From positions 704,001-768,000 of the forward strand of contig CAWIKF010000002.1 in NCBI GenBank assembly GCA_963836755.1: a stretch of DNA of 64,000 bases, in the 5' to 3' direction. The notes beneath the pieces are model-generated. The model was given only the letters and a program-made list of their open reading frames with translations. It did not search any database and was not told the origin of the DNA. Position numbers and translations under genes: made by a program. This document shows positions 4,620 through 47,987 of this stretch, piece by piece; within the stretch, counting starts at the first letter, position 1; each line of letters opens with the position of its first letter. Source of the stretch: an uncultured Verrucomicrobiae bacterium. GTDB taxonomy: Bacteria > Verrucomicrobiota > Verrucomicrobiia > Chthoniobacterales > Chthoniobacteraceae.

Positions 4620-4750
4620 GAAAATCCCCGCGCTCGCTCCAAAATCCAGCGCGGACAGGGAAAGTTCGCGCGCGGACGCAGAAAATTCCGGCGCGGATAC
4701 GGAAAATCCCAGTATTTTCACGTGCAGTTCCAACCCTTTACTCTGTAGAG
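4620..4750 (+). repeat. Array A: about 5 degenerate 20-21 nt units (AAAATCC..GCGCGGA) plus terminal motif TTTACTCTGTAGAG
   Basis: A-tract unit starts at 4621, 4641, 4661, 4682, 4703; motif at 4737-4750. Confidence 0.75.
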
Positions 4751-5160
4751 CCACCGTGAAGGAGGTTTTTGCTTCCCCTTTGGACGACACCGACCGGTGC
4801 CGGAAACGGCTTGAAGTCCTAGAACGCACGCTCGCTTTTGATGGGTTTTGAAACCAATCGTTCACGAAAATCTCCATCCCGTCGCAGGTGTGTAATAATC
4901 TTTATTAGCTGATCGGGAAGAGTTTTTCTGCCAGCAATCACGGGGCAATATTACAACGTTTACGACGGTGAGATGGAGGTAAGCACGCCTTCAACTCTGC
5001 TCCGGCACCCTCTGTTAGTGCTCGGCAAAATGGCACAACTGAAGACCGTAAATGACACGCAAAAAAAGATGAAATCACCATAGCGACGACTACTCTTCAT
5101 ACAGCCTAACGGCCGTCTTCGACTGAACCCCCAGACCGTTCCACCAGTCTCCTCCCTAAA

Positions 5161-8100
5161 ATGAAATACAAGCAATCATTCGCTCTCAAGCTCCGTAGCC
5201 ACATCGCCGCGATTCTCGGCAGCGCCGCCGTGATCAGCATGTCCAGCCACTCCGCGCACGCGGCGACGAAAACATGGAACAACGCGGCAGGTGGCGATTT
5301 TAACGACCCTGCGAATTGGACCGGTGGCATCCCGGTGACGGCAGACACTGGGCTATTTAACATAATCCAGTCCGGGAACGTCACCCTTTCGGCGAACGCA
5401 AACCCGGGTTCCATCAATTTCGATACGAACGCGGACAACTCGACCACTCACAACCTAACGATTGGTGTGAACGGCGGTAATACGATCACGTTTGGCAACG
5501 GCGGGAATCTTTCTGTGCTGGCCACGCTTACCGGCACCGGCAAGACTTTCACCATCGCTGCTCCGGTGATCCTGACTCCGGCATCGGCCACGACGGCGGG
5601 TGCCTTTACCATCCAGAATAACGCCACCGATCCCACCAACACACTGGTCGTGAGCGGCGGTATTTCAAGTGGGACAACGAACAATACCGAGACCTTGACG
5701 CTCGCGGGCACCAACACCGGGACGAACACGATCAGCGGCGCAATCGTCAATGGCGGCGCCACCACATTTGCTTTGACGAAGAGTGGTGCGGGCACCTGGA
5801 TTCTGACCGGCGCAAACACCTATAATGGCGCGACCACGGTTAGTGCGGGTGTTCTGCAATTGAGCGGCGCGAACGGCGCCTTGGCTTCCGTAGCAGCGTC
5901 GGCGTTGAACGGCGGCTCTTTGATCCTGGATAACACCGGTGCCGGCAACAACAACAACAACCGTATCGCCGACACACAGGCACTCGCGCTCAACGGCGGC
6001 AGCTTCGTTTACAAAGGCTCTGATCAAGCGGCCACTAACTCCACGGAAACCATTCAAAACCTCAGCGGCACTGGCAATTCCACCATCACGATCTCCTTCG
6101 GCGGCACGAACGGGGCTACTCTCACGGCGGGAACCTTTACGCACGCAGCGGGCAATGCGACCGATTTGGTCAACGGCGTAAACCTTGGCGCGAACTCGAC
6201 GGATGCCGCGAGCTTCGCCCGTTTCATCAGCACCGCTCCGACGCTGACCGGCACAACGAACGCCCTCACGACGGGCATCAATGCCGCTGCTAAGAACACC
6301 AAAATCGTTCCGTTCCTGGTTGGCGAAGCGACTTCGACCACTGGCGGCTTGGGCACGGCGACCGGCACGGCGAACACTTTCCTTACCTACATTGCCGGCA
6401 GCGGCTATCGCCCGTTGAACCCGACCGACGAGTTCACCAACAATGCCATCACGGCAGCCAGCAACACTTACGTCACCACGGGCGCGACCAACACCGCCAA
6501 TACCGCCATCAATTCGCTCGTCATCAATGGCGGAGACGTGACGATCAATGATGGCACGACGCTCACCAATACCAGCGGCGCATTGCTCTTTGCTTCGTCC
6601 AACGCCATCAAACCCAGCGTCACGACCGGCATCTACACAGCCTCTGCTGAACACCAAGTCACGGTCAACTCCGGCATCACGGGCACGATCAGCGCGGTCA
6701 TCAACGGCGCCCAAGCCCTCACGAAATCCGGTGCAGGCACTTTGGTGTTGAGCGGCGCCAATACCTTCACCGGCGCGACGACGCTGACTGCGGGCACACT
6801 GAACCTTTCGAATCAGCTCGCGCTACAAAGCAGCACTTTAACCCAAACCGCGGGAACTTCCCTGGTGTTCGATGCGGCAGGCGGCACTGCCTTCAGCCTC
6901 GGCGGTCTGAACGGCGGCGTGAATATATTGCTGCAGAACACGGCGGCAGCGGCAGTCGCGCTGACGGTTGGCGGGAACAATAGCGGCGGCACCTATTCAG
7001 GTATTTTGAGCGGCACGGGCTCGCTGACCAAGATTGGCACTGGCAACCTCGTCATCAATAACGCCAACACCTACACCGGCGCGACGGTCGTCAATGGTGG
7101 CAAACTCACCTTGGGCAATGGCGCGACGATCAAGAACAGCTCCTCCGTCACGGTGACCGCACCGGGCTTGCTCGGCATTGGCACGGGCACTGAAAGCAAC
7201 CAGCTTGCTGCGGGAGTGGTGATCACAGGCACCGGTGGCGTGAGCGACGAGATCAACAACGCGAACACCACCATCACTTTGGATCGTCAAAACACTTATA
7301 CCGGGCAGACGACATGGGGATCCCGAGGCATCATCACTGCGGGTGTGTCCTCTACCTTTGACGGCAACGGCAACGCGATCAGCGGCCCCGTCGGCGTCAA
7401 TTCGCAGATCAATTTTAACGGCCAACAGGGCGAGTTGAATGTGAACGGGAAAACCGTCGAGGTGGGATCGCTGACCGGTTCGGTAGGCGGCGGCGGCGGT
7501 GTGATGCTGAGGGGTGGCACGATCATATTCGGCGGAGACGGGCTCACCGCCAGCACCTCGGCGCCGATCGGTAATAACTATCTACCCGGCACCGATTCCA
7601 ACGGCACTGGCGTGGGCGGTCAAGCTCCGGGCGGCAATGTCGTCAAGATCGGCGGCGGCACCCAGACGTTCTCTTCGACGACCAACCTCAACAGCTATGA
7701 GGGCACCACCACCATCAAAGGCGGTGTGATTAGCACCCCTGTGCTCGGAACGAGCGGCTTCGTGGCCCCGGCAACCAGCACGTTTGTCAGCGGCACTAAC
7801 ACTGTGACGGTCTCGAGCACTGCTGGTTTGGTCGTTGGGATGAATATCTTTGAAGTTAGGGCCACCGGTGCCAACACGACGATCACGGCGATCGATGCTG
7901 TGAACAACAAGATCACATTGTCCGGCAATGTTGGCTTCAGTGGAACCCAAAACATCGTGCCATACGGTTTTGGCAGCGGCATCGGCATTTCCGGCCCCGC
8001 GGCATCCAACCTCGTCCTCGACGGCGGCACGCTGCAATACACCGGCGGAGTCACCACCACCGACCGTCTCTTCACCGTCGGCTCGAATGAGGCGGGTGGC

Positions 8101-9279
8101 GTGACGGGAACACTCGATGCCTCCGGCGGGGGAGCGTTGACCTTCTCAAACACCGGCTCGATCGCCTACGGGACGGTCGATCAGGCTCGCACGCTCGGCT
8201 TGACCGGCAGCAGCGCAGCCGCAAATACCTTGGCTCCTCTCATCGCCGACAACGGCGCTGGCGCAGTGAGCGTCCTTAAAACTGGTGGGGGCACGTGGAT
8301 TCTGGCCAATACCAACACCTACACCGGCGGCACCATCGTGAGCGCGGGCACTTTGCAGAACGGCGTGAACAATGCCCTCGGCACCGGCCCGCTCACCGTC
8401 GGCAACAACGCCACCTATGACATCGCTGGCTTCAATCAAACCGTGGCCGGTCTTTCCGACGGCGGCTTCAACACCGGCTTCGTGATTGATAGCGGCGCGG
8501 CGGGAACTTTAACCGTCAGCAACCCCACCGCGAGCAGCTTCAGCGGAACTTTGACAGGCAACTTTGCCCTCATCAAGACTAACACCGGCGCCCAAACCCT
8601 CACCAGCACGAACTCCTACACCGGCCCGACCACTATCAGCGCCGGCGCGCTCTACGTGGACGGCTCCATCGGCAGCACCTCCGCCACCAGCGTCAGCGGC
8701 GGCACCGCACTCCTTGGCGGCAACAGCAGCGTCGCCAACGGGGTCGGCCCGGTCAGCGTCACCAACGGCGGCACCATCCGCCCCGGTTTCGATGGCACCG
8801 CGCACTTTGCCACCGTCACCAACGCCACCACCTTCACGCCGAACCTCAGCGCCAATTCGCTGACTCTCGACAGCACCTCCAAATACATCCTCGACCTGGG
8901 CGCAGGCTCCACTGGCGTGAATAACGGCACCGGCAGCCCGATCGGTCAAAGCGCACTACTGAAGGTTAATGGCAACCTCAGCCTTGGCGGCGCCACCCTC
9001 ACAGTGAACGACACCGGCGTCCCCACCACCTCCGGCGAAGTCTTCAAGTTCATCCAATACACGGGCACTTGGGACGGCACCACCTTTGCCGGCCTCGCAG
9101 ACGGGGCCTCCTACCTCAGCGCCAACGGCATTCAATACACCATCAACTACGCGGTCGGCGACCCGTTCGTCGAGCTGACCGTCGTCCCCGAGGGCAGCAC
9201 ATGGGCGATGATGCTCGGCGGCTTCGGCACCCTGGTTGTCTTCCAGCGCGCCCGCCGCCGGAAATCGCCCATCGCGTAA
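5161..9279 (+). CDS. Autotransporter-associated beta-strand repeat protein with PEP-CTERM-type sorting signal
   Basis: Repeated LTKSGAGTxxLxGANTYxGxTxVxxGxL motifs; C-terminus VPEGSTWAMMLGGFGTLVVFQRARRRK; signal peptide ending AHA. Confidence 0.92.
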   Translation: MKYKQSFALKLRSHIAAILGSAAVISMSSHSAHAATKTWNNAAGGDFNDPANWTGGIPVTADTGLFNIIQSGNVTLSANANPGSINFDTNADNSTTHNLTIGVNGGNTITFGNGGNLSVLATLTGTGKTFTIAAPVILTPASATTAGAFTIQNNATDPTNTLVVSGGISSGTTNNTETLTLAGTNTGTNTISGAIVNGGATTFALTKSGAGTWILTGANTYNGATTVSAGVLQLSGANGALASVAASALNGGSLILDNTGAGNNNNNRIADTQALALNGGSFVYKGSDQAATNSTETIQNLSGTGNSTITISFGGTNGATLTAGTFTHAAGNATDLVNGVNLGANSTDAASFARFISTAPTLTGTTNALTTGINAAAKNTKIVPFLVGEATSTTGGLGTATGTANTFLTYIAGSGYRPLNPTDEFTNNAITAASNTYVTTGATNTANTAINSLVINGGDVTINDGTTLTNTSGALLFASSNAIKPSVTTGIYTASAEHQVTVNSGITGTISAVINGAQALTKSGAGTLVLSGANTFTGATTLTAGTLNLSNQLALQSSTLTQTAGTSLVFDAAGGTAFSLGGLNGGVNILLQNTAAAAVALTVGGNNSGGTYSGILSGTGSLTKIGTGNLVINNANTYTGATVVNGGKLTLGNGATIKNSSSVTVTAPGLLGIGTGTESNQLAAGVVITGTGGVSDEINNANTTITLDRQNTYTGQTTWGSRGIITAGVSSTFDGNGNAISGPVGVNSQINFNGQQGELNVNGKTVEVGSLTGSVGGGGGVMLRGGTIIFGGDGLTASTSAPIGNNYLPGTDSNGTGVGGQAPGGNVVKIGGGTQTFSSTTNLNSYEGTTTIKGGVISTPVLGTSGFVAPATSTFVSGTNTVTVSSTAGLVVGMNIFEVRATGANTTITAIDAVNNKITLSGNVGFSGTQNIVPYGFGSGIGISGPAASNLVLDGGTLQYTGGVTTTDRLFTVGSNEAGGVTGTLDASGGGALTFSNTGSIAYGTVDQARTLGLTGSSAAANTLAPLIADNGAGAVSVLKTGGGTWILANTNTYTGGTIVSAGTLQNGVNNALGTGPLTVGNNATYDIAGFNQTVAGLSDGGFNTGFVIDSGAAGTLTVSNPTASSFSGTLTGNFALIKTNTGAQTLTSTNSYTGPTTISAGALYVDGSIGSTSATSVSGGTALLGGNSSVANGVGPVSVTNGGTIRPGFDGTAHFATVTNATTFTPNLSANSLTLDSTSKYILDLGAGSTGVNNGTGSPIGQSALLKVNGNLSLGGATLTVNDTGVPTTSGEVFKFIQYTGTWDGTTFAGLADGASYLSANGIQYTINYAVGDPFVELTVVPEGSTWAMMLGGFGTLVVFQRARRRKSPIA

Positions 9280-9303
9280 AAGAGGCGACCGCTTCCCGAA
9301 ACA

Positions 9304-9344
9304 GCGCCTCCCTGCCGCCCGGCACGGAGGCGCCGTTTGCTTTT
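9304..9344 (+). terminator. Probable intrinsic terminator
   Basis: GCGCCTCC...GGAGGCGC stem followed by a T-rich tail after the PEP-CTERM gene. Confidence 0.6.
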
Positions 9345-9514
9345 GCGCCTCTCAAAGCCGAACGCGTAACACCGCCAGCCGTGCCGTTGCTGCGGGTCAG
9401 TCACCGAATGCCCGCCGGTGAGAGCGCACGCGCCTTGATGAGCACAGAGGGTTATGCAGTCTTCACTGGAGAGGAAACAGTGGGTTCCTTTGCCCTTCGC
9501 GTGGACACCTAAAG

Positions 9515-9771
9515 GGAAAAGGTGGCCACTGGAACGGAAAAGGTGGCCACTGGAACGGAAAAGGTGGCCACTGGAACGGAAATGGTGGCCACCGGAATGG
9601 AAATGGTGGCCACCGGAATGGAAATGGTGGCCACTAAAATGAAAAGGTGGCCACTAAAATGAAAAGGTGGCCACTAAAATGAAAAGGTGGCCACTAAAAT
9701 GAAAAGGTGGCCACTGGAATGAGAAAAGTGGCCACTTTTCAGGAGCAGTTCTGGCCGTTTACTCTGTTGAG
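9515..9771 (+). repeat. Array B: 11 units of 20-21 nt around palindrome GTGGCCAC plus terminal motif TTTACTCTGTTGAG
   Basis: Cores at 9521, 9542, 9563, 9584, 9605, 9626, 9646, 9666, 9686, 9706, 9727; motif at 9758-9771. Confidence 0.95.
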
Positions 9772-9878
9772 CCGCTCCAAAGGAGGTGTTCGGCCCTTTC
9801 GACGACACGACCGCCGCCCGCGGAGACGGCCGGCCGCCGGAAGTCGATGCTCTCCTAGAATTCAATACAATCGCGGCT

Positions 9879-12800
9879 TCACCGGAAATCGTGCGAAGCC
9901 GAAACGGCCAGCTCATCACCTGCGAGCCGTTCGATCGTGCGGGCTTTCACATGGATGATCTCCTTGGCGTTTTGGAGTGAACCTTCGATCTGGAGAAAAC
10001 TTTCCTGCGTGATGAGCAATCGCATCTTTTCAAATAACTGCGGGGTCACGATCGCATTTGCCACGCCGGTTTCATCTTCGAGGCTGATGAAGACGAAGCC
10101 TTTCGCGGTGCCGGGTCTTTGACGACAAATGACCGCGCCCGCGATGCGCACTGTTTCACCAGCGCGCGCATGGACGAGATCGGCAGCGCACCAAATATTT
10201 TCCGCGAGCTTGGGCCGAATCAATGCCATCGGGTGTGGTCCTGTCGTCAAATTTGTGCCGACGTAATCGGCGCGCACGCGCTCAAACGCATCCATCGGGA
10301 TCAGCGGAGTTGCTTCCGCTTCACGCAGCGGAGCGAAGAGATCATTGGCGGCAAAGTCGCCTTCCACTTTCCAAAGCGCATCGCGCCGATGATCGGCCAG
10401 GCCGTTGAGTGCGCCAATGCTTGCGAGGGTCCGCAGCTCGCTTTTATCGACACGACTGCGGAGTTTGAAATCTTCCAGCGAGAAGTAACGCGCGCTCCTG
10501 GCCTCGGCTGCAATGCGTTCGCCCGTGGCGCGATTGAGTCCATTCACAATGCACAGCCCGAGCCGGATCGAGTCATCGTTTTCAATGGTGCAGCGATACT
10601 CGGAGCAGAGCACAGACACCGGCCGAATCCTCAGCCCATGCCTGCGCGCATCTTTGACGAGCGTGGCCGGTGAGTAAAAACCCATCGGCTGATTATTGAG
10701 CAGCGAGGCAAAAAATTCCGGTGCGCGATGCACTTTTAACCACGCGGAACCGTAGGCGATCAGCGCGAAGGAAATCGCATGGCTTTCAGGAAATCCATAG
10801 ACCGCAAACGACTGCACCGCCTTTGTGATTTGATCGACGACGTCTGGCGCAACGCCGTTTTTTTCCATCCCCGCGCGCAGTTTCACGCAGACTTTTTCCA
10901 TGCGTTCCTGCGACCGATGAAAGGAAAGCGCGCGCCGCAATTCCTCCGCTTCGCTGCCGCTGAAATCGGCCATGACCATCGCCATTTTCAGAAGTTGTTC
11001 CTGAAAAAGCGGGATGCCGAGCGTGCGCGCGAGCACCGGTTTCAAACGTTCGTCGAAAAAAGTCACCGCCTCCGTTCCCTCACGCCGCGCGAGATATGGA
11101 TGCACCATTTCACCCTGGATCGGGCCCGGCCGGATGATCGCGACCTCGACCACGACATCGTAAAAACATTTTGGTTTCAACCGCGGCAACGTTGCCATCT
11201 GCGCGCGACTCTCGATTTGAAACACGCCGATCGTATCCGCGCGGCACATCAAATCAAACGTCGCCACATCGTCTTTCGGAATCGCCGCGAGATCGACCGG
11301 CCGCTTCCGGTCAGCGCACAATTCGATCGTATCCTGCATCACCGCCATCATCCCGAGCCCGAGCAAATCCACCTTGATGATGCCGCGATCCTCGCAGTCA
11401 TCCTTGTCCCATTGCGCGACCACGCGGCCTGGCATCGACGCATTCTCCAGCGGCACGATCGAGTCGAGTTTTCCCTGGCAAATAATCATCCCGCCCGAGT
11501 GCTGCCCGAGATGTCGCGGCAGCCCGTAGATCCTTTGGTAGAGCCGCACGGCGGCCGATGCGCGCGGATGTTGCAGCGGCAATCCCGACTTCTGCATTTG
11601 CGTTTGCAAATCGAGCGTGTGCGGGAAATCGCCGCTCGCAAAAAGGCTCGAAAAACGGCTCAGCACATCGGTAGAAAAGTTGAGCGCCTTGCCGATTTCG
11701 CGCATCGCACTTTTGCCGCGAAATGTGATCACATTCGCCGTCATCGCCGCGCCATGTTTGCCGTAGCGCCGATAGATTTCCTGGATCACGCTCTCGCGCC
11801 GCTCGCCACTCGGCAGGTCGAGATCGATGTCAGGCCAGCTCGTCCGGCCTTCGCTCAGAAAACGCTCAAACAGCAGATTGTTTGAAATCGGATCGCACGC
11901 CGTGATGCCGAGCGAATAGCAGACCGCGGAGTTCGCCGCGCTGCCGCGACCTTGCATCAAAATGTTTTGCTCCGAGCAAAAATTCGCGATGTCCCAGACG
12001 ATCAAAAAGTAACCGGCAAACCCGAGCTTCTCGATCAGCGCGAGCTCGCGATTGAGCTGCGCGAGCACTTTTTTCCCGACGTGCGAATAGCGCGCCCGCG
12101 CGCCCGCCAGCGTCATCTTGCGCAAAAACGAGTCCATCGTTTCGCCATCGCGCACCGGATATTTAGGAAATTCATAGCCGAGATTTTCGAGCGAAAATTC
12201 CAGCCGTTCCGCCAGCGCCACGCTGTTTTCAATCGCGTCCGGATGATCGCGAAAAAGCGCGCGCATCTGCGCCGGACATTTCAAATACCGCTCGTCATTG
12301 CGCGCGAGCAATTTTCCCGCGGCATCGAGATGCGTGTGATTTCGCGCGCAGGTGAAAACATCCAGCACCTCGCGCTGATCGCGCGTCGCATGCGTCACGC
12401 CATTGGTCGCGAGCAGCGGCAGCGAAAAAGTGCGCGCGATTTCCGCGAGCTGATCGAGGAAATATTCTTCGCCTTGCACGAGATGCCGCTGCATTTCGAC
12501 GAACACATTTTGTTTTCCAAAAATGCGCGTCAAAGTTTCCACACTCTCGCGAGCGGCTTTCAAATCATCCCGCGCGATCGCGCGCCGCAGCGGACCTTCG
12601 TCATCGCCAGTCAGCGCCACGAGCCCTTCGGAAAATTCCGGCAGCTCATCCCATCGCACCGCACATTCCGTTTTCGTGCCGCGCAATTTCGCGCGCGTGA
12701 TCAGCCGGCAAAGATGTTGATAACCGGTGCGCGACTCGACCAGCACCGGCAAAATCGCGCCGCATTCCATCGTCAATTCCGCGCCGACAATCGCGCGGAT

Positions 12801-12986
12801 TCCCTGCTCTTTGGCTGCTGCATGCAGACGCGGCGAACCATAAACGCCGTCGCGGTCGCAAAGTGCAATCGCCTGCAAACCCAGCTGCGAAGCCACTTCC
12901 GCGAGATGCTCGGGAAATGCGGCACCGCGTAAAAAACTCAGCGCGCTCCGCGCGTGCAGCTCAACGTAGCGCGACAAATTCTTCAT
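9879..12986 (-). CDS. dnaE2: Error-prone DNA polymerase DnaE2 (ImuC)
   Basis: PHP start ELHARSALSFLRG; GRGSAANS; PDIDLD; GFPESHA; RQRPGTAKG; C-terminal SHDFR. Start trimmed to MKNLSRY. Confidence 0.95.
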   Translation of the reverse strand: MKNLSRYVELHARSALSFLRGAAFPEHLAEVASQLGLQAIALCDRDGVYGSPRLHAAAKEQGIRAIVGAELTMECGAILPVLVESRTGYQHLCRLITRAKLRGTKTECAVRWDELPEFSEGLVALTGDDEGPLRRAIARDDLKAARESVETLTRIFGKQNVFVEMQRHLVQGEEYFLDQLAEIARTFSLPLLATNGVTHATRDQREVLDVFTCARNHTHLDAAGKLLARNDERYLKCPAQMRALFRDHPDAIENSVALAERLEFSLENLGYEFPKYPVRDGETMDSFLRKMTLAGARARYSHVGKKVLAQLNRELALIEKLGFAGYFLIVWDIANFCSEQNILMQGRGSAANSAVCYSLGITACDPISNNLLFERFLSEGRTSWPDIDLDLPSGERRESVIQEIYRRYGKHGAAMTANVITFRGKSAMREIGKALNFSTDVLSRFSSLFASGDFPHTLDLQTQMQKSGLPLQHPRASAAVRLYQRIYGLPRHLGQHSGGMIICQGKLDSIVPLENASMPGRVVAQWDKDDCEDRGIIKVDLLGLGMMAVMQDTIELCADRKRPVDLAAIPKDDVATFDLMCRADTIGVFQIESRAQMATLPRLKPKCFYDVVVEVAIIRPGPIQGEMVHPYLARREGTEAVTFFDERLKPVLARTLGIPLFQEQLLKMAMVMADFSGSEAEELRRALSFHRSQERMEKVCVKLRAGMEKNGVAPDVVDQITKAVQSFAVYGFPESHAISFALIAYGSAWLKVHRAPEFFASLLNNQPMGFYSPATLVKDARRHGLRIRPVSVLCSEYRCTIENDDSIRLGLCIVNGLNRATGERIAAEARSARYFSLEDFKLRSRVDKSELRTLASIGALNGLADHRRDALWKVEGDFAANDLFAPLREAEATPLIPMDAFERVRADYVGTNLTTGPHPMALIRPKLAENIWCAADLVHARAGETVRIAGAVICRQRPGTAKGFVFISLEDETGVANAIVTPQLFEKMRLLITQESFLQIEGSLQNAKEIIHVKARTIERLAGDELAVSASHDFR

Positions 12987-14430
12987 AACATCCTTCGACA
13001 AGCCATTGGTCCTGCTGGCGGGAGAGGAGGTAAATTCCCTCCTCCGTCTCCACAATCCATTGCTCGATTGCCCACGCTTTTTCATCCCACCAATCGCCGG
13101 AGAGCCGGTGCGGACCGAGCGCATCTTTGATCGCGCCATGCGCTTTTTCCGAAACGACAAAATGGGGCGCGTGATTTTTCAGCGAAACCTGTGCGCGAAA
13201 TGGCGGACGAAAACGCCTCAGCGGCAGACCAACTTTGACGCCATTCGAGTGCTGAACTTCGGCGTCAAAGTTTGAAAAATCGGGCGCGCGCAATTCGCAC
13301 GCATCCGGCCGATGCGTCGGTTGCAGCGCGGGAAATCCGACGTTTTCCGCGCCAAGCAAAGCAGTGAGTCGGGCGAGCGTTTCGCTGAATCGATTCGGAT
13401 CGCGGATTGAATTTTCAAACAGCCCAAACTGTTGTCGATGCGGTTTGGACGGCTCCACGACAAGGTTTGCGGCGATCGGGCCGTGCTCAAGTTTGAGCTG
13501 CTCGAGATGCGTGTCGAGAATCCGGAACAGCACTTCGATCTCATTCGTTGGCGCTGGGATGGAAAATTCGCGTTCATGTTTTCCGCCATTGGAAAGCGGC
13601 AGCGTCAGCGTCATTTTCGCCGCGACGCGATAGGTGAGCTCGAGTCGCCGCGTCAGCGAATCGAGAAATCGCCGGATGATGAAAAGCAGCGGCTCGAGCG
13701 TTTCGATCTCGCGCTCGAAATCAAATGTCTCGCAGAAAATCTCCGGCGTGCGCACCAGTTTGAGCAAGCGCTCGCCGCGCCCATGCGCCGCATTCCAGAG
13801 GCGGTGACCTTCCTCGCCGAGCCGCGCCGTGAGCCCATCCAGCGGCAATCGCGCGAGATCGCCGAGATTGTGAATGCCCCAATCGCGCAGAATTTTCGCA
13901 GCGGTTGGATTCGGTGAAAGCGCAGTAAGCGGTTTTTGAAAAAGGAATTTCGCGCTGTCGCGAACGATGCAAACTGAATCGCTTGATTGGGCTGCAAGCA
14001 AGGCCAGGCCAGGGTTTACGGCGATTCCCACCTGTGCTTGCAGATCAAAGTCGGCGGCAACTTTGATCGCATTCGCCGCCCATTTTTCCATGTCGGTCAC
14101 CTGCGCGCATCGCAGGTCGAGCGTGCAAATTTCCGGCGCAGTCTGCTCCACATAAAGCGAAAGTGAGCATGCGATTTCGCGCAGCATTTCGCTCATCGCT
14201 TTTTCCTGATCGATGGCGCGCGAAAAAATTTGCAGCGCCGGCGAACGCGCCAGCGCCTGGCTCGATGTCATGCCGCGCTCGATCCCGTCGCGCTCCGTGC
14301 CCACGGAAAATTCGACAATTCGGCCCGGCTCGCCATCGACGATTGCAATAGGCGTTTGCGGAGACATTCGCGGGCGAAAACGGAGTGCGGCTTGCAATTG
14401 AAAACGAGGAAGAAAAATCGCGGCGAACAT
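12961..14430 (-). CDS. imuB: Inactive Y-family polymerase-like protein ImuB
   Basis: Y-family-like N-terminus; C-terminal GPHRLSGDWW motif; overlaps the dnaE2 start. Confidence 0.88.
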   Translation of the reverse strand: MFAAIFLPRFQLQAALRFRPRMSPQTPIAIVDGEPGRIVEFSVGTERDGIERGMTSSQALARSPALQIFSRAIDQEKAMSEMLREIACSLSLYVEQTAPEICTLDLRCAQVTDMEKWAANAIKVAADFDLQAQVGIAVNPGLALLAAQSSDSVCIVRDSAKFLFQKPLTALSPNPTAAKILRDWGIHNLGDLARLPLDGLTARLGEEGHRLWNAAHGRGERLLKLVRTPEIFCETFDFEREIETLEPLLFIIRRFLDSLTRRLELTYRVAAKMTLTLPLSNGGKHEREFSIPAPTNEIEVLFRILDTHLEQLKLEHGPIAANLVVEPSKPHRQQFGLFENSIRDPNRFSETLARLTALLGAENVGFPALQPTHRPDACELRAPDFSNFDAEVQHSNGVKVGLPLRRFRPPFRAQVSLKNHAPHFVVSEKAHGAIKDALGPHRLSGDWWDEKAWAIEQWIVETEEGIYLLSRQQDQWLVEGCYEEFVALR

Positions 14431-14434
14431 GGTG

Positions 14435-15109
14435 TCATGCGGTTTGCGCGAGCAGCGGCGCAGTGGCTTCGATCGATTGAAAACGTTGTTTGCAACTGGT
14501 GATCTGCAGCTCGCGCACGAGGTCTGCGCGGCGCATCCGCATCGCGCGCAAAGTCAATGGCCGCGCTGTTCCCAGCTGCAGGCGCAGCGTGGCGGCCTCG
14601 ATCATCGGCTTGGGCGTGAAGGCGATGAGTGTCGTCGTTTTTTTCTCCTCCAAAATGCGCTGGAAGCGATACCAGGTGCTCGCCGGGATGCGGCGCAGTT
14701 GCTGGGCTGGCGCGAATTGGAGATCGAGAATCAGCAGCGGCAAATTCCCATCTCTCACGAGGAGATCAGCGGCTTTAATCGCCTGCGCTGCCTCCGGACA
14801 ACGCACCCACAACAGTCGCGAAAGAGAATTTTCTAAAACTTCTTCGGGATGGAATCCTCCACCGTTGTCGATCAAACCTGCGAGCAATCCTCGCCGCGTC
14901 AGATCATCGAGAAGTGCAGCGCATAAAAGGGATCCGCGCGCAACGGAGACAGAAGTTTCCACAATCGAATATCGAGGAATGCCACCAAACATTTCATCGA
15001 GCTGGGGCAATCCTGTGGCGAAAAATTCCGTGCGCAGTGAGATTTGCGGAGGCGAAAATTTCGCGGCCAGCAGTCCACGAAGTTCGATGATTTTTCGAGA
15101 TGCCTCCAC
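14435..15109 (-). CDS. imuA: RecA-like ImuA-type protein
   Basis: ATGLPQLDEMFGGIPR and RLLWVRC...LLILD motifs; no intact Walker A; first gene before imuB-dnaE2. Confidence 0.75.
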   Translation of the reverse strand: MEASRKIIELRGLLAAKFSPPQISLRTEFFATGLPQLDEMFGGIPRYSIVETSVSVARGSLLCAALLDDLTRRGLLAGLIDNGGGFHPEEVLENSLSRLLWVRCPEAAQAIKAADLLVRDGNLPLLILDLQFAPAQQLRRIPASTWYRFQRILEEKKTTTLIAFTPKPMIEAATLRLQLGTARPLTLRAMRMRRADLVRELQITSCKQRFQSIEATAPLLAQTA

Positions 15110-15135
15110 ATCGGCACACTAAACTTTGTGAGAAA

Positions 15136-15153
15136 AGTGTTCAAGCGAACACT
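15136..15153. promoter_or_regulatory. LexA/SOS box of Verrucomicrobia type (TGTTC-N4-GAACA)
   Basis: AGTGTTCAAGCGAACACT palindrome about 27 nt upstream of the imuA start. Confidence 0.85.
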
Positions 15154-24870: not shown

Positions 24871-25140
24871 AAACGGCTCCCGTTGCGACCGATCCTGCGT
24901 TCAGGTTTGGTCAAACGGCTCCCGTTTGAGCGATCCGGCGTCCAGGATCGTCCGCACAGCTCCGTTTTGAGCGATCCTGGAGCCCGGGTCGCTCGCGCGG
25001 CTCCGTTTTGACCGATCCTGAAGCCCGGGTCCTCCGCACAGCTCCGTTTTGAACGATCCTGAAGCCCGGCTCGCTCGCACAGCTCCGATTTGACCGATCC
25101 TGAACGCCGGGTCGGTCAAAAAAGCGGTTTTACTCTGTTG
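24871..25140 (+). repeat. Array C: 6 units of 41-42 nt (GCTCCGTTTTGAnCGATCCTGAAGCCCGGGTC...) plus terminal motif TTTACTCTGTTG
   Basis: CTCC(C)G starts at 24877, 24919, 24960, 25001, 25042, 25083; motif at 25129-25140. Confidence 0.92.
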
Positions 25141-27335: not shown

Positions 27336-27444
27336 TCTAATCTGAGTAAAAAGACGGTGCCGCGGCCAGGCTCACTCCGGCGCTCTTCCTCGCTTTTGAA
27401 AATTCATCTTTGGCTGTGCGCCACTTCTGCCGATGATGCCGCGC

Positions 27445-34844: not shown

Positions 34845-34853
34845 AAAAATTTC

Positions 34854-36640: not shown

Positions 36641-36789
36641 TCCCGGGTAGGGTGGGCGTCCCGCCCGCCGGTTTCGGCGTCTCGCCGAAACGAACTTCGC
36701 CAACGAGTTTCCCGCACGCATGTTCCGCCGAAAAGTTCGCCAAGGCAGGATGCCTTGGCCGGCGGGCGGGACGCCCACCCTACCCGGGA
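36641..36789. repeat. REPIN-like element: inverted pair of GTAG-type REPs
   Basis: Perfect 31-bp inverted repeats TCCCGGGTAGGGTGGGCGTCCCGCCCGCCGG (36641-36671 and 36759-36789) with internal hairpins. Confidence 0.85.
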
Positions 36790-36825
36790 GCTATCAGCTC
36801 CGCGCCGGTGGGAAATGGCTCCTCT

Positions 36826-37114
36826 GTCAGCGTCTTTTTCGGGCGTGTCAGCGTCTTTTTTGGGCGTGTCAGTCACATTTTATACAGCGTCAGCGTCTTT
36901 TTCGGGGCTGTCAGTCGCTTTTTATACAGCGTCAGCGTCTCCACGAGGGTCGTTAGCGTCTGCGCGGGGGTCGTTGGCGTCTCCACGGGGCGCGTCAGCG
37001 TCTCCACGCGCTTGGTCAGCGTCTGCGCGCGACTCGGAAACGTCTTTTCGCGCTCGGTTAGCGTCTTTTCGGGGCTCGGAAAGCCGTTTTCACGAGCAAA
37101 ACAGCCGTTTCCTC
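36826..37114 (+). repeat. Array E: 13 degenerate units of strict 21-nt period (GTCAGCGTCT...)
   Basis: Unit starts every 21 nt from 36826 to 37078; ends TTTTCACGAGCAAAACAGCCGTTTCCTC. Confidence 0.9.
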
Positions 37115-37134
37115 ATCCAAACCGGAGCCTGCCG

Positions 37135-38314: not shown

Positions 38315-39082
38315 ATGAGCGACCGGAAACGATTCATGCTGACGGCGGAGAACGTGAACAAGACGTTCGACGGCTTCAAGGCGATCACGGATTTGAACTT
38401 TTACATGGATGAAGGCGAGCTGCGGACGGTCATCGGGCCGAACGGGGCGGGGAAGACGACTTTCCTCGATTTGATCACCGGCCGCTCGAAGCCGGACACG
38501 GGCACGATCCAGTTCGGTCGCGACAACGCGGAGCTGACGAAGCTCAACGAGTATCAGATTTACCGGCTCGGCATCGGGCGGAAATTCCAGACGCCGACGG
38601 TCTATGTGGATCACACGGTTTTCGAGAATATCCTGCTGTCGCTCGAGGGAAGCCGCGGGGTGTTTTCGGCGCTATTCGCGCGGGTCACGCCGGCGCAGAA
38701 GGAGCGGATTCATGAGGTTTTGAAGATCATCAACCTCTCGCACAAGGCGCACGACAAAGCTGGCTCGCTCGCGCACGGCCAGAAGCAATGGCTCGAGATC
38801 GGGATGTTGCTCGCGCAAAACGCGAAGCTGCTGCTGGTGGATGAACCGGCCGCCGGCATGACCGACGAGGAGACCGCAAAGACGGGCGAACTTTTACTCA
38901 GTCTCGCAGGGCATCACACGATCATCGTCATCGAGCACGACATGGTTTTCGTGCGGCAGATTGCGACAAAAGTCACGGTGCTGCACCAGGGGACGGTGCT
39001 CTGCGAAGGGACCGTGGACGAAGTGCAGAACAACGAGCGCGTCATCGAGGTCTATCTCGGCCGCAAGAAAGCCCACGATTAA
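38315..39082 (+). CDS. urtD: Urea ABC ATP-binding protein
   Basis: GPNGAGKTT, GIGRKFQ, HGQKQWLEIG, DEPAAG. Confidence 0.93.
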   Translation: MSDRKRFMLTAENVNKTFDGFKAITDLNFYMDEGELRTVIGPNGAGKTTFLDLITGRSKPDTGTIQFGRDNAELTKLNEYQIYRLGIGRKFQTPTVYVDHTVFENILLSLEGSRGVFSALFARVTPAQKERIHEVLKIINLSHKAHDKAGSLAHGQKQWLEIGMLLAQNAKLLLVDEPAAGMTDEETAKTGELLLSLAGHHTIIVIEHDMVFVRQIATKVTVLHQGTVLCEGTVDEVQNNERVIEVYLGRKKAHD

Positions 39083-39799: not shown

Positions 39800-39851
39800 A
39801 GGCTGGCGTCATTGACAGACCGGGCGTCGCGGCTTTTAGTCTCTCACTCCG

Positions 39852-40166: not shown

Positions 40167-40250
40167 TTCCCTCCGCGCCAGCTCACCCGAGTCGCTTCGA
40201 TTTCGGGCGAGGTCAACTTTGATTCCAAAATCCTACAAAAGGAGACTTAA

Positions 40251-40415
40251 ATGAAATCACTACTGCTCATCGCCTCGGCCATCATGGCCGTCGCATCGCC
40301 CTTCACCACCCAGGTGAAGGCGGCCGCTGATTGCTGCGACTGCTGCAGCACCGGCGTGTGCGGGTGCGCGCAATGCACCTGCTGCGATTGCGCGACCTGC
40401 CCGAGCTGCCAGTAA
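40251..40415 (+). CDS. 54-aa secreted metallothionein-like peptide (12 Cys)
   Basis: Below the ORF-track cutoff. AAGGAG RBS at 40239-40244; MKSLLLIASAIMAVASPFTTQVKAAADCCDCCSTGVCGCAQCTCCDCATCPSCQ*. Confidence 0.85.
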   Translation: MKSLLLIASAIMAVASPFTTQVKAAADCCDCCSTGVCGCAQCTCCDCATCPSCQ

Positions 40416-40583
40416 ACTCGGCTGCTCGACCTGGAGCGCCCGCCGGTCCTCGTGGCCGGCGGGCGTTTCCATTTCCGGAGATCGAGGAATGGAAAAAGGC
40501 GTGCCAGTTTCCCGGCGCGCTTTCAAGCATGAGGCAGAGGCGCAAAAATATTGAGGCAAACGTGAGAACGGCGCGGTTTGAAG

Positions 40584-43700: not shown

Positions 43701-43724
43701 GCGAAAAGGCGAACGCCGCCCGTG

Positions 43725-44999
43725 TTACTTCGGCCGGTGAGCGCCACCGGCCGGCGCGGCTCCCGCGGGCTCGGGCGGTTTTACGTGCGAGCCTTGCTGC
43801 AATTTATATTGCCCATCGACGACAACTTTTTCGCCAGCCTTCAAGCCGTCGTCGATCAACGCCTGGCCCTCGTCGATCTGCGCAACTTTGACAAGGCGGA
43901 TTTCCACGGTGTTGTCGGATTGGATGACAAACGCATACGCACCGTTTGGCCCGCGCTGAATGACGGACGCAGGGACGACGAGTCCGTTTTTGCGCGTGGT
44001 CAAATGCAGCCGCGCGTTCATGAACTGCCCCGGCCAAAGCTGGCGCTGCGGGTTTGGAAACACGGCCTTCAACCGGAACGTGCCGGTGGAAGTGTCGATC
44101 GCATTGTCGATGACGGTGAGCTCACCGGTATCGAGCACGGTCTTGTTGTCTGGGCCCATCGCGAGCACTTCCAACTTTTCGCCAGCGGCCGTGTGCTGAT
44201 GGATCTCGAGCAAATTCTGTTGCGGCAAAGTGAAGACCAGCGCGATCGGCTGGAGCTGGGCGATGGTGACCAACCCGTTCGTGTCGGTCGCGTGAACGAT
44301 GTTACCTTCATCGACATTGCGCAGGCCGGTGCGGCCATCGATCGGCGAAAGGATGCTCGTGTAATCGAGCTGCACTTGCGCGCTTTGCACAGCCGCGGCA
44401 TCGGTGCGAACGGCGGCGGCGAGCTGCGCGACGAGTGATTTCTGCGTGTCGTATTGCTGCGACGCGATCACTTTTTTCGCCACCAAATCGGTGTCGCGCG
44501 TGAGGTCGAGCTGCGCGTTTGAAAGCTGTGCCTGATCCTGATTTTGCTTCGCCTGCGCCTGCTCCAGCGAGGCGCGAAACGGCGCGGGATCGATCACGGC
44601 GAGCAATTGCCCCTTTTTCACATCCTGCCCTTCGTCGAACGCGATGCTCACCAGCTCGCCGTCGACACGCGGCCGCACGGTCACTGTGTTCAGCGCCTGA
44701 ATCGTGCCGATGCCGTCGAGATAAATCGGCACATCTTTTTGCGCGACGACGCCCATCACGACTGGCACCGGCGCGTTTTGCGGATGCGCCGCGGCCTGCG
44801 CGCGCGCTTGCGAATTTTCGCGGAGGCGATGAACCACGAGGAAAAGTCCGACGATGAGCAAAACGATGACGATCCAGAAAGTTTTGCCCTTGCGCTTTCG
44901 CGGCTGTTGCGTGCTCGCGCGGCCGAGCGGCGCGGTTGGGAGCAAAGTTGTTTGCAGCGGGTCGGCAGTTTTTGCCGCGATTGGTTTCAAATCGTCCAT
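43725..44999 (-). CDS. RND membrane fusion protein, MdtA-like
   Basis: N-terminal TM; VRPRVDGEL, SPIDGRTG, IDNAIDTSTGT, LWPGQF. Confidence 0.92.
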   Translation of the reverse strand: MDDLKPIAAKTADPLQTTLLPTAPLGRASTQQPRKRKGKTFWIVIVLLIVGLFLVVHRLRENSQARAQAAAHPQNAPVPVVMGVVAQKDVPIYLDGIGTIQALNTVTVRPRVDGELVSIAFDEGQDVKKGQLLAVIDPAPFRASLEQAQAKQNQDQAQLSNAQLDLTRDTDLVAKKVIASQQYDTQKSLVAQLAAAVRTDAAAVQSAQVQLDYTSILSPIDGRTGLRNVDEGNIVHATDTNGLVTIAQLQPIALVFTLPQQNLLEIHQHTAAGEKLEVLAMGPDNKTVLDTGELTVIDNAIDTSTGTFRLKAVFPNPQRQLWPGQFMNARLHLTTRKNGLVVPASVIQRGPNGAYAFVIQSDNTVEIRLVKVAQIDEGQALIDDGLKAGEKVVVDGQYKLQQGSHVKPPEPAGAAPAGGAHRPK

Positions 45000-45015
45000 T
45001 GGTCTTACAGTTCGA

Positions 45016-45504
45016 TCACCGCGAAACTTTTGCGGCGGCGTTACGTTTTTTTAAAACCCCGCTCGTTGTGGAAACGCTGGAGATTTCTTTTAAAATTTGC
45101 GTCGCCCGGAAAATCTCGCGCCGCTTTTTCTCGTCGAGCTCCGCAAACTTTTCCGTGAAAAAATCGCGTGCCTCCGCGCGCGCGATGCCGTGCCGCTTCC
45201 TGCCCGCGCTCGTCAACGCGAGCACGACATATCGACGATCGCCCGCGTGAGTCTTGCGCGTCGCGAGTTTCGCCGCCACCAATCCCTCGACAAGTTTTGA
45301 CGCCGTTGGAAGCGTCAGGCCGAGATGCGTGGCGACATCGGAAAGCGAAACGCCGTCGCCGCGGCCGATGAACGCGAGCGTCCGAAACTGCGGGATCGAC
45401 AGGTCACTGCCGCGACTCGCCTGCACCTTTGCGCGAATAACGCGCATCAGCATCGGCACTGTGTCGAGCAGCTCCGTGGCGCATTGTTCCGGGGAGACAT
45501 TCAT
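45016..45504 (-). CDS. MarR-family regulator
   Basis: LSIPQFRTL; HTH; DRR..LALT..G wing motif. Confidence 0.9.
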   Translation of the reverse strand: MNVSPEQCATELLDTVPMLMRVIRAKVQASRGSDLSIPQFRTLAFIGRGDGVSLSDVATHLGLTLPTASKLVEGLVAAKLATRKTHAGDRRYVVLALTSAGRKRHGIARAEARDFFTEKFAELDEKKRREIFRATQILKEISSVSTTSGVLKKRNAAAKVSR

Positions 45505-45597
45505 TGGTTGAATGAAGAAACAGTGTCATAAGCTAACTAACTTACAACCGGTTCTTCTCCCGGCTGGAATCGCGGCGCCGAACTTTGACGCGCGTGG

Positions 45598-46458
45598 TTA
45601 CGCGGATTTCTCGATCGGCTTGCGCACGCTGTTGCCCCACTCGGTCCACGAACCGTCGTAGTTGCGCACGTTTTTGTAGCCGAGGAGATAGTTCAGCACG
45701 AACCAGGTGTGGCTCGATCGCTCGCCGATGCGGCAATAGGCGATGATGTCGTCCTCTTTTTTCAGGCCGCAATTATCGGTGTAAATTTTCCGCAGTTCTT
45801 CGGCCGACTTGAATGTCGAATCTTCGCGCACCGCTGTTTTCCACGGGACGCTTTTCGCGCCGGGAATGTGGCCGCCGCGAAGCACGCCCTCCTGCGGATA
45901 CTCGGGCATGTGCGTGATCGTCCCTTGATATTCGCCCGGCGAGCGGACGTCGATGAGCGGCCGGCCTGCCTGGCTTTGCGCGAGCGCATCGTCGGCGAAA
46001 GCGCGGATTTCCGCGTCGAGCCGTTTCGGCGGCACTGGATAATCGGCAGGTGCGAACTTTGGTTTTTCGCGCGTCATCTCCCGGCCTTCCGCCGTCCATT
46101 TGTCGCGGCCGCCGTCCATGATTTTCACTTTCGTGTGGCCGAACAAACGGAAAACCCAGAGCGCGTAGCAGGCCCACCAGTTGGCTTTGTCGCCGTAAAA
46201 AATGCAGGTCGTCGCGGGCGTGATGCCGTTGCGCGAGCAGAGCTCCGCGAACTTTTCGCACGAAACGTAATCGCGCACCACCGGGTCGTTCAGGTCGGCG
46301 TGCCAGTCGATGTGCACCGCGCCGGGGATGTGGCCGGTATCGTAAAGCAGCACGTCTTCATTGCTCTCGACGATGCGATAGCCCGGCTCGCCGCCGTGTT
46401 CAGCGACCCACTCGGTGCTGACGAGGACATCGGGGTTTGCGTAATTGGAATCGTTCAT
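45598..46458 (-). CDS. Tandem-domain rhodanese/sulfurtransferase
   Basis: GHIPGA twice; [17 protein letters not shown]. Confidence 0.93.
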
Positions 46459-46519
46459 GTCGGGCAAAAATATCGCGCGCCTCCGCGCGGCTCAATGTAA
46501 ATGCGCGCGCCGCTTTTCG

Positions 46520-47554
46520 CTACGCAGCCGCCGACTCGAGTTCCATCGTTCCCTTGAACTTCGACGGCTCCTCCTCCACGCCAAAATTCTCGGCATGGAG
46601 CTCCGCGATTCGTGCCATCTCTTCCGCGGTGAGCGGCGGGCAATCGGGCGCGGCGGCGAATTCCTCGATCTGCTTTTCCTCGTAAATATTCGGCAGCGTG
46701 GAGGCGACGCGCGGATCGGCCAGCAGCCATTGCAGCGCCGCCTGCCCGAGCGTCCGCTCCGAGTTTTCGAGAAAACGGAGCTGCGCGATTTTTTTCACGC
46801 CATTCAACAGCCACGAGCGCGGGCGATGCCGGCGGTGATCGTTTTCCGCGAAGACTGTGTCGGCGGTGTAATGCCCCTCGAGCATCCCGGAGCTGTGCGG
46901 CACGCGGATCAAAAACATCGTGTCGCGCCCCGCCTCCTCCGCCGCCGCGTGCATCGCCCGGCCGGGATGCTGCTCGAGCATATTATAAATGTGCTGCACG
47001 CTCGCGATCTCGCGTTCGCGGATCGCATTGACCCCTTCGTAAAGCCAGCCGATCGCCGGCCCGAGCGCGACGCCCGCGTGCCGGATTTTGCCGGCATCGC
47101 GCAGCTTTTCCAGCGTCGTCCAGATCGGATCGTCATAGACCTGCTCCATCCGGATGTTGTGGAGCTGCATCAAATCGATCCGGTCCGTCCTCAATCGCCG
47201 CAGCGCCGCATCCGTCGCACGCACGAGCGCCTCGGGCGAAAAATCATGCGGAATCTCCCGCTGCCCGCGCCCGCGCTCATTGCCGAAATTGACAAAATCG
47301 TAGCCGATCTTCGTCGCGATCACGATCTCATCGCGCCGGCCCGGGAACGCCTTCGCGATCAACTCCTCGCTCAAGCCGTTGCCGTAGGTATCCGCCGCGT
47401 CGAAAAGCGTCACGCCGCGGTCAAACGCCTTATGCATGAGCGCGATTGCTTCGCCCTCGGTGAAATTTCCCCACCAGCCGGTCGAAACCGTCCACATGCC
47501 GAAGCCGACTTCGCTCACAGTGAGATCGGTATTTTTGAAAGTGCGATACTTCAT
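46520..47554 (-). CDS. Aldo/keto reductase
   Basis: MKYRTF..VSEVGFG, FDAADTYG, IATK, LRRLRTDRIDL. The ORF-track N-terminal extension is read-through of array D. Confidence 0.9.
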   Translation of the reverse strand: MKYRTFKNTDLTVSEVGFGMWTVSTGWWGNFTEGEAIALMHKAFDRGVTLFDAADTYGNGLSEELIAKAFPGRRDEIVIATKIGYDFVNFGNERGRGQREIPHDFSPEALVRATDAALRRLRTDRIDLMQLHNIRMEQVYDDPIWTTLEKLRDAGKIRHAGVALGPAIGWLYEGVNAIREREIASVQHIYNMLEQHPGRAMHAAAEEAGRDTMFLIRVPHSSGMLEGHYTADTVFAENDHRRHRPRSWLLNGVKKIAQLRFLENSERTLGQAALQWLLADPRVASTLPNIYEEKQIEEFAAAPDCPPLTAEEMARIAELHAENFGVEEEPSKFKGTMELESAAA

Positions 47555-47654
47555 AAAAGCGGCAGCAGCATCGCGGCTCCGCGGCGCGTTGTAAAGCCGA
47601 GCGCTCCAGTTGCGGTCGCACGAATGAACGCCGGCCGCTGACGATTCGCCGTCA

Positions 47655-47987
47655 GAATCCCAGCGCGGACACCAGGACGGAGGCGGAAAATCCCAGGACG
47701 GATGCGGAAAATCCCAGCGACGGAATGGGAAAATCCCAGGACGGACGCGGAAAATCCCAGGACGGATGCGGAAAATCTCAGGACGGATGCGGAAAATCCC
47801 AGGACGGAATAGGAAAATCCCAGGACGGAATGGGAAAATCCCAGGACGGAATGGGAAAATCCCAGCGCGGAATGGGAAAATCCCAGGACGGAATGGGAAA
47901 ATCCCAGGACGGAATTGGGAAAATCCCAGCGCGGACATCCAAAATCCTGGGATTTTTGCCGTCAGTTCAGCCTTTTACTCTGTAGAG
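47655..47987 (+). repeat. Array D: about 13 units of 21 nt (GAAAATCCCAGGACGGAATGG) plus terminal motif TTTACTCTGTAGAG
   Basis: Unit starts 47686 to 47940 at 21 (twice 22) nt spacing; motif at 47974-47987. Confidence 0.95.

Follow-up and report, generated by a model that had tools for sequence, protein, structure and literature searches.

The 64-kb window analysed here, by which we mean the whole stretch of DNA under study, contains four intergenic tandem arrays (A to D) whose units are not all alike and which are each followed by the same short word, TTTACTCTGT. This raises the question of whether the word is the fixed end of an element carrying interchangeable units, as a preliminary description of this DNA suggested, or a site with some other role. 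On balance we favour the reading that the word is bound by a DNA-bending protein of the host, with the order's IHF-like protein as the likeliest binder, and that A, B, and D are probably copies of an array-plus-gene cassette that lack the gene. This reading draws on the presence of the word beside 19 of the 70 arrays of the genome together with its presence at attachment (att) sites of unrelated integrase islands.

Copies of the word and their linkage to arrays

A scan for the exact word finds the four copies where they were first reported, each beside an array (Table 1), and a further match with one mismatch, at 38893, lies inside a gene. The resulting five matches at ≤1 mismatch compare with a mean of 0.91 in shuffled sequence, and none of 100 shuffles reached five. 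The sequence TTTT..CAGTTC that had been noticed upstream is found in A, B, and D.

Linkage to arrays also extends to the whole genome, where nine of the 11 exact matches lie just 3' of a 21-, 41-, or 42-bp array, as do eight of the 38 one-mismatch matches, in a zone that makes up 0.3% of the genome. Twenty of the 31 copies of the 8-bp core are at arrays, which cover 1.1% of the genome, and the word ranks first in a de novo 8-mer enrichment of array flanks, for which the two underlying k-mer tables are mirror images of each other. A PWM count of outward versus inward array flanks was set aside because its training set consisted of the outward flanks. The full consensus of the word is WTTACTCTG(T/G)(A/T)R.

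The constant plus-strand orientation first described holds within the window but not genome-wide, where the 19 array-linked sites at ≤1 mismatch are divided into 13 plus and six minus; the relative G008 has 14 forward and 15 reverse copies. Seventeen of the 19 sites point outward from the array. Cumulative GC skew of the four unordered contigs gave no usable origin for a plot of orientation against the replichores. The idea that the word closes a coding sequence (Glu-stop, minus strand) was rejected, since most reading frames entering it are interrupted. Literature searches, mostly outside subscription journals, found no publication describing the word.

Table 1. Positions of arrays, word copies, and an array-associated gene in the window
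Feature	Coordinates	Strand	Remarks
Array A	4620..4719	+	Degenerate 21-bp A/D-family units; TRF 4641-4707, 3.2 copies, 72%; end is an 18-bp imperfect palindrome, 4702-4719
Word copy A	4737..4748	+	Downstream foot homologous to B and to gene-bearing copy C1:228709, reaching ~4815
Array B	9515..9740	+	21 bp x 10.8, palindromic core; TRF 9515-9736; end is a perfect 18-bp palindrome, 9723-9740
Word copy B	9758..9769	+	Exact word match and flank alignment
Array C	24871..25120	+	41-bp units, ahcY-rmuC intergenic; TRF 24871-25114; terminal inverted repeat 25089-25120
Word copy C	25129..25140	+	Only the short word in common with A, B, and D
Degenerate word copy	27338..27351	-	Directly after tRNA-Arg; top of 45 tRNA flanks here, alone not significant
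21-bp array without word	36825..37082	+	TRF; no cassette gene
Array D	47655..47956	+	21 bp x 12.2, A/D family; TRF 47672-47929; terminal palindrome 47941-47956
Word copy D	47974..47985	+	Exact word match
Array-associated gene	59489..60535	-	348 aa, no Pfam family; upstream array 60695..61011
41-bp array without word	60695..61011		TRF, 7.7 copies, 97%; upstream of cassette gene

Array families, their units, and the cassette gene

TRF identifies two arrays in the window, both without the word, that were absent from the preliminary list. The assignment of A and D to one unit family stands, with the correction that A is a short, degenerate form of the D unit. The fold-back structure is likewise present: A, B, C, and D each end in a palindrome whose centre is 24-26 nt ahead of the word. 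It is not general, since only five of 17 outward sites have their best inverted repeat at -24 to -26, and terminal windows have a mean score of 6.1, little different from the 5.6 of array interiors. Array B begins immediately past a stop codon. Read support comes from the short-read contigs of one soil run, possibly the source sample, which cover array B at an identity of at least 95%; among the matches listed, no joint skips array A, B, or C.

The genome has 70 periodic tracts, with 14 dispersed groups of two to seven copies, and 111 of its 311 TRF rows have a period of 21, 39 a period of 42, and 12 a period of 41. A single genome thus has several families that agree in period but not in sequence, which is the pattern of constant-length 20-21-nt repeats. 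The preliminary description recognised no account of such arrays, but constant-length arrays of variable sequence have already been described by Subirana and Messeguer (PMC8161180), who report 20-21-nt tandem repeats in Bacillus and, in general terms, in many bacteria, and who propose a protein that polymerises on them. Their repeats resemble ours in having several families per genome with equal period (two helical turns) and different sequence, but the linked gene family and the flanking host site found here are not named in the parts of that paper cited here. One of the two-member groups in our genome is a coding coiled coil.

A and B are 74% alike over 99 bp though their units differ, A matches the gene-bearing B-type copy at 76% over 71 bp, also with different units, and B is 92% identical over 281 bp to the copy at C1:29617, with unrelated flanks. 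The part of the proposal that concerns interchangeable units is supported for A, B, and D, which have a homologous foot and different units; C has only the short word in common with them. Across A, B, and D the repeat unit has turned over and the foot is conserved. Homology past the word stops at varying points (about +20 to +75), the arrays are polar with ragged far ends, and their internal units drift in blocks, as slippage would give.

The product of the array-associated gene clusters with those of other array-adjacent genes and of genes that follow the word in G001, and the structure predicted for the cassette protein is helical with FN3, a fold that does not in itself imply DNA binding. 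Cassette proteins are encoded at C1:227791 and C2:1902901. The B family has four copies and the A/D family five, each with one gene-bearing copy, and the proteins of these two copies are 75% identical whereas their array units differ. We consider arrays A, B, and D likely to be gene-less copies or relatives of this cassette of array and helical/FN3 gene. Four profiles find no cassette gene at 52 of the 70 arrays in this genome, and the array C family has one at neither of its two copies here. In the five gene-bearing cassettes with the word, it is proximal and sense in two, distal and antisense in two, and distal and sense in one, thus taking three different positions relative to the gene, on either side and strand.

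The word at attachment sites of islands

The word is common to array flanks and to tRNA/tmRNA att sites of unrelated islands across the order, a connection that is new. Within 35 nt of a tRNA/tmRNA T-arm, the 8-bp core has 21 matches in 20 of 151 family genomes, compared with two matches for a shuffled word and three for canonical IHF letters, and in reverse orientation it has 13 matches in 13 of the 151. A sample of the order gives 32 matches of core and T-arm in 25 of 301 genomes, representing eight of 16 families; the word is absent from all 48 genomes of family f14 in this sample, and outside the order it is at chance level (4/200). Letters outside the searched core agree between sets (A at +10 in 20/21 versus 15/26, a purine at +11 in 21/21 versus 24/26, and A at +12 in 16/21 versus 16/26). 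The tRNA ends of our own genome are not enriched for the word (2/45 against a background of 1-2%).

At these att sites arm-like repeats and an integrase often follow the word, and nine of the 31 ORFs scanned beside T-arm sites encode PF00589 integrases, the other 22 not being integrases. An island in G003 is illustrative: its 46-bp tRNA-Arg core is duplicated, and within each end the word is present, with short direct repeats after it; here as at the other islands the arm sites are short direct repeats assigned by position, not by binding. The word thus lies between the core and the arm-like sites of tyrosine-integrase att sites, which is the position of an IHF site: in lambda-type attP, attL, and attR, the IHF (H) site is placed between core and arms. 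Presence at the tRNA insertion sites of unrelated islands argues against the word as the end of a new mobile element. In G008, 22 of the 29 copies are within a repeat unrelated to the arrays. The downstream flank derived from att sites scores above shuffles for the arrays of relatives and for this G008 repeat, but not for the array sites of our own genome (p=0.23).

A candidate host protein

The genome has one HU gene, at C2:306265, and one IHF-like gene, at C2:193241-193558. The product of the latter has single-chain IHF as its best PDB match, keeps the equivalents of beta-E44 and R46 and lacks R42 (residue roles from 10.1101/057489), and is under the NCBIfam IHF cut-offs, with 70 versus 111 and 65 versus 115 bits. 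Unlike IHF alpha/beta it derives from a single gene and is presumably a homodimer. Orthologues are present in every genome of the order examined, and the strand that follows the GF motif sets them apart from the proteins of other orders; the proteins are kin and not independent, so the covariation of residues with presence of the word is kept as a lead only. The protein of family f14 has FQP in place of FEV.

The H sites of lambda-type att sites resemble the predicted site in being short host sites between a core and arm-like direct repeats, in either orientation and common to unrelated elements; the partial consensus match and the encoded IHF-like protein are further points of likeness. IHF is required at att sites of this type (PMC2603039). 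The H sites differ from the site predicted here in that its invariant letters are TTACTCTG and that the word also recurs beside long 21-bp arrays. The reverse complement of the word aligns with the IHF consensus WATCARnnnnTTR (PMC8407004), with an invariant G for the first T of TTR and the W-A-T start partly matched. The word does not match this E. coli-type consensus, and its best-conserved letters fall in the free N4 positions of IHF. An AT-rich tract is found at +18..+23 of the word, which we take to be about 5 nt nearer than in the lambda H' geometry. We regard the order's IHF-like protein as the leading, though unproven, candidate binder.

It is possible, but in our judgement unlikely, that the shared site is bound by some other, order-specific factor (Fis/Xis-like or other), perhaps within a recombination pathway by which array cassettes are moved as well. 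That the invariant letters of the word fit the IHF consensus poorly speaks for such a factor, as does the restriction of the word to the order when the IHF-like protein is phylum-wide; the dnaA loci of five genomes also have no exact copy of the core, oriC itself not having been located. However, at many tRNAs, in both orientations and beside different integrases, the word is found where lambda-type att sites have IHF, with the core on one side and arm-like repeats on the other, and the order's distinctive strand after the GF motif, albeit among kin, belongs to its IHF-like proteins.

A possible role for the arrays

In the model we propose, a dimer of the cassette's helical/FN3 protein would recognise each palindromic unit as an operator, and the terminal palindrome would be the primary operator, about three helical turns centre-to-centre from the host site, a spacing that would tie the 20-21-nt constant-length repeats to an intasome-like geometry. 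By bending the DNA, the host protein would fold the array into a nucleoprotein complex with a regulatory effect on the cassette gene. The repeat unit would be rewritten by local slippage and homogenisation, and gene-less copies would arise by duplication of array and foot or by gene loss. If this is right, the word would be the first sequence signature that we could find of an architectural host protein in this soil lineage, which is abundant but barely cultured, as well as a marker of island junctions in that lineage, and would suggest that IHF-family specificity can shift between lineages.

A comparable arrangement is P1 parS, in which an IHF site lies between two clusters of ParB boxes (PMC10999674). 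As far as the cited account goes, both have repeated operator sites by a host bending site and near the gene of the presumed binder, which is predicted in our case; but here ParA and ParB are absent, the host site flanks the repeats instead of splitting them, and dozens of copies with different units are dispersed over the chromosome. A bolder and rather doubtful extension is that array, bending site, and the cognate helical/FN3 protein together make up a self-spreading module, resembling an att site or a centromere, of a kind not yet described. The protein would coat palindromic repeats that are two turns apart, an IHF-like protein of rewired sequence preference would fold the terminus in intasome-like fashion, and borrowed recombination machinery would copy the module, or its gene-less array, to new intergenic sites. 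Were this true, the unexplained 21-bp constant-length repeats of bacteria would gain both a protein that binds them and a means of dispersal.

Other explanations

That the word is the fixed right end of a non-autonomous, MITE-like element with an interchangeable internal unit is quite unlikely. The homologous foot of A, B, and D, the 92% identity of B and C1:29617 between unrelated flanks, and the outward reading of the array-linked sites speak for it. An array-bearing insert of ~310 bp between two conserved genes is absent in G002, which makes this A/D-family array an insertion specific to one lineage, with an empty site too diverged to show the junction. However, the differing points at which homology stops past the word are against it, and neither terminal inverted repeats nor target duplications rise above chance in the flanks of A-D (longest inverted word 7-8 nt, random mean 7, 95th percentile 9; longest direct word 5-8 nt, random mean 7). 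Moreover, 51 of the 70 arrays have no copy of the word, the array that is missing from G002 lacks one at ≤1 mismatch, and att sites have the word without arrays. The placement of the word on either side and strand of the gene is likewise at odds with an anchor. The empty site sought at ahcY-rmuC was not obtained, as these two genes are neighbours in none of the 12 relatives searched; at seven further loci, in three to five relatives each, both flanks are still adjacent at one only. BrickBuilt, a minisatellite MITE of Porphyromonas gingivalis with one 23-nt unit and inverted-repeat ends (PMC4596501), is similar, in the cited description, in its intergenic array of ~20-bp units, conserved leader or tail, and many genome copies, but differs from our arrays, which have many units, no terminal inverted repeats, and a conserved word common to att sites.

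Improbable too, and slightly more so, is a promoter element, with TACTCT as a -10 box or the word as an alternative sigma factor site. In G001 array-linked genes begin 20-30 nt after it and share its strand, and TTG-like hexamers are seen by eye 14-15 nt upstream of several copies; a 14-15-nt spacer is short for sigma-70. The mixed positions in the five gene-bearing cassettes and the occurrence of both orientations after tRNAs (21 versus 13) are contrary to this role.

Synthesis of the arrays by a reverse transcriptase primed at the word, or their membership in a non-coding RNA family, is very improbable, for although the units are palindromic, with terminal hairpins, and the arrays polar and ragged, the 96%-complete genome has no match to PF00078 (the one reverse transcriptase family searched), Rfam recognises no family in the window besides two tRNAs and none at the arrays, and the block-wise drift of units is as from slippage.

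The exclusion of CRISPR in the preliminary description is borne out by head-to-tail units without unique spacers and by the lack of an Rfam CRISPR match, and that of a REP/RAYT system, in which GTAG-type stem-loops flank a Y1 transposase, by the two PF01797 matches, C2:2206408 and C1:60318, which are both far from A-D. Each of these two matches is 1-3 kb from another array.

Occurrence of the motif at tandem arrays and tRNA sites

The motif WTTACTCTG(T/G)(A/T)R was originally noticed as four exact 10-mers, one beside each of four arrays (A to D); all are present, and the 10-mer count in the window exceeds that of every one of 100 shuffled sequences. Across the genome (G000, in which the window occupies C2:704001-768000) there are 11 exact matches, nine of them directly 3' of an array (period 20-22 or 41-43), one on the 5' side of an array and one unrelated, and 38 further matches with one mismatch, eight array-3' and one array-5'; the array-3' zone comprises 0.3% of the genome. 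The fold-back is also confirmed, as a palindrome closes each of arrays A to D, its centre 24-26 nt upstream of the motif, which puts the two centres some three helical turns apart; genome-wide, the best inverted repeat has this placement in only five of 17 outward sites.

Among 31 genomes the motif 12-mer has 79 matches, distributed over 17 of them, compared with four for the reversed control. Context was examined for 68 of the 70 non-self matches: 11 follow an array (7/8 in relative G001, 3/5 in G002 and one in G011), one precedes an array, 22 are inside a different short-repeat element of G008, and for nine of the remaining 34 a tRNA, tmRNA or T-arm fragment is no more than 100 nt away. When 151 family genomes were searched for the 8-bp core within 35 nt after a T-arm, 21 matches were found in 20 genomes and the reversed core gave 13 matches in 13 genomes, with two matches for a shuffled word and three for the canonical IHF letters. 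Besides tmRNA, at least ten tRNA species are represented among the targets, and T-arm and array copies agree at positions outside the search word (+10 A, +11 purine, +12 A). Tyrosine integrases represent nine of 31 scanned ORFs neighbouring the T-arm sites. A 37-kb island in G003 has a duplicated 46-bp tRNA-Arg core, with one word 18 nt inside its left end and another a few nt inside its right end, both pointing inward, with short direct repeats after each.

The T-arm-linked core has 32 matches in the order sample, in 25 of 301 genomes and 8 of 16 families, with none in the 48 genomes of family f14 of the order Chthoniobacterales, and is near chance (four matches) in 200 genomes from elsewhere in the phylum. 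Outside the order the whole-genome 13-mer gave 15 matches against 34 for its control, and a GTDB-wide 12-mer scan yielded 36 loci, eight of them verrucomicrobial.

A candidate host-protein site

The word is common to different integrases and tRNAs, occurs in both orientations and between core and arm-like repeats, and is found in two unrelated repeat systems; the simplest reading of these sequence patterns is that it is quite probably a shared site of a host protein. In att sites of the lambda type, the place of IHF is between the core and arm sites. IHF is described as required in lambda-type recombination (PMC2603039) and as acting beside repeated operators in P1 parS (PMC10999674), the latter resembling the word, a candidate IHF-type site, in its position next to repeated units.

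An IHF-like protein is a candidate binder, to which we would assign not quite even confidence. The genome has a single HU gene and a single gene for an IHF-like protein. Among PDB structures the IHF-like protein matches single-chain IHF best. Of beta-E44, R46 and R42, which reportedly determine the specificity of IHF (10.1101/057489), the first two have equivalents in this protein and the third has none. The reverse complement of the word resembles the IHF consensus WATCARnnnnTTR, in the form quoted from PMC8407004, but differs at an invariant position. Against such a binder, the protein scores under the NCBIfam IHF cut-offs and is also found where the word is not enriched, an att-derived flank fails to score the G000 array sites (p=0.23), the genome's own tRNA ends are not enriched (2/45), and the exact core is absent from the dnaA loci of five genomes.

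A cassette with exchangeable units

TRF reports 311 rows in the genome (period 21, 111; period 42, 39; period 41, 12), and our own detector 70 periodic tracts, two of them coding, which sort into 14 groups with more than one copy plus 22 singletons. Genes of four protein clusters, with products mostly of 200-260 aa, are directly downstream of 18 of these tracts. The B family (four copies) and the A/D family (five copies) each have one gene-bearing copy, and these are 75% identical in their proteins and 79% in their leaders. The feet – the sequences at the motif end of an array, running past the motif – of A, B and the gene-bearing B-type copy are 74-76% alike over 71-99 bp, with A carrying the other unit. 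The conservation of protein, leader and feet despite differing units indicates that the unit has been turned over inside a retained gene-leader-array-foot cassette. Gene and leader are absent from A, B and D, which are probably gene-less copies of the cassette; neither G000 copy of the array C family has a cassette gene.

The A/D-family protein is predicted to combine a helical half at the N-terminus with an FN3 fold at the C-terminus (pLDDT 91, 33-sequence alignment; FN3 match Z 10.8, rmsd 2.4, 90 residues), and nearly all of its 44 matches are unnamed. Linkage and symmetry suggest that the palindromic units are putative binding sites of the cassette protein, which would occupy them while a host bending protein bound the word beside the terminal palindrome.

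The preliminary description took the motif as the fixed end of a dispersed element with exchangeable units. The foot homology across differing units in A and B sustains the second part; the first is not supported, in that 51 of 70 arrays lack the motif at up to one mismatch (of the 19 with it, 14 are without and five with a gene), its place in the five gene-bearing cassettes varies (two proximal/sense, two distal/antisense, one distal/sense), and homology between copies breaks off at differing points past it. Terminal inverted or direct repeats at array copies do not exceed chance. Lineage-specific insertion accounts for at least one array, since ABC-transporter and methyltransferase genes are about 100 nt apart in G002, with no array, and in G000 an A/D-type array lies in the roughly 410 nt between them; no junction signature is readable in this comparison.

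Relationship to known repeats

The arrays match a class of repeats described in PMC8161180, constant in length (20-21 nt) and variable in sequence. BrickBuilt elements (PMC4596501) are similar, but inverted ends of that type are not found here above chance. Among the papers listed by a literature search, none describes the word. The observation thus stands and is not trivial; it resolves into a repeat class already described, the cassette and a likely lineage-specific host bending site, the last being the new part. CRISPR and REP/RAYT readings do not hold when tested, nor does templated repeat synthesis by an RT, for which a PF00078 search of the 96%-complete genome gave no match.

Features of the window and other loci
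Location	Position	Strand	Feature
Window	5161-9279	+	PATR-repeat autotransporter-like gene between homologous feet of A (4716-4815) and B (9737-9830), direct repeats, 74% over 99 bp
Window	9069-9512		ORF in another frame than the autotransporter-like gene; stops just before array B
Window	9879-15109	-	DNA polymerase III alpha paralogue; IMS-family gene and third ORF upstream, arranged like an imuA-imuB-dnaE2 cassette
Window	36641-36789		REP-like inverted pair, 57-nt arms, 81%; beside motif-less 21-bp array, inside urea/branched-chain ABC operon
Window	59489-60535		Array-associated cassette gene
Window	61050-62117	-	Integron integrase, scoring above the TIGR02249 cut-off; 3' end abuts the 41-bp array with its cassette gene; upstream, possible cassettes in three short + ORFs
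G000 C1	742592-743451		Array-linked cassette gene, apparent frameshift break; motif 58 nt before gene start
G000 C2, C1	2206408, 60318		The genome's two Y1-transposase matches, each with a 21-bp array at a distance of 1-3 kb
G008 L034-L060			Dispersed element, 22 copies; motif flanked by short direct repeats rich in A/C, with phased A- and T-tracts
L139	2530-2560	motif strand	Two inverted motif copies back to back, after tRNA-Asn, before integrase
f14 L263-L267			IHF-like protein with proline in strand after GF motif, 5/5 examined
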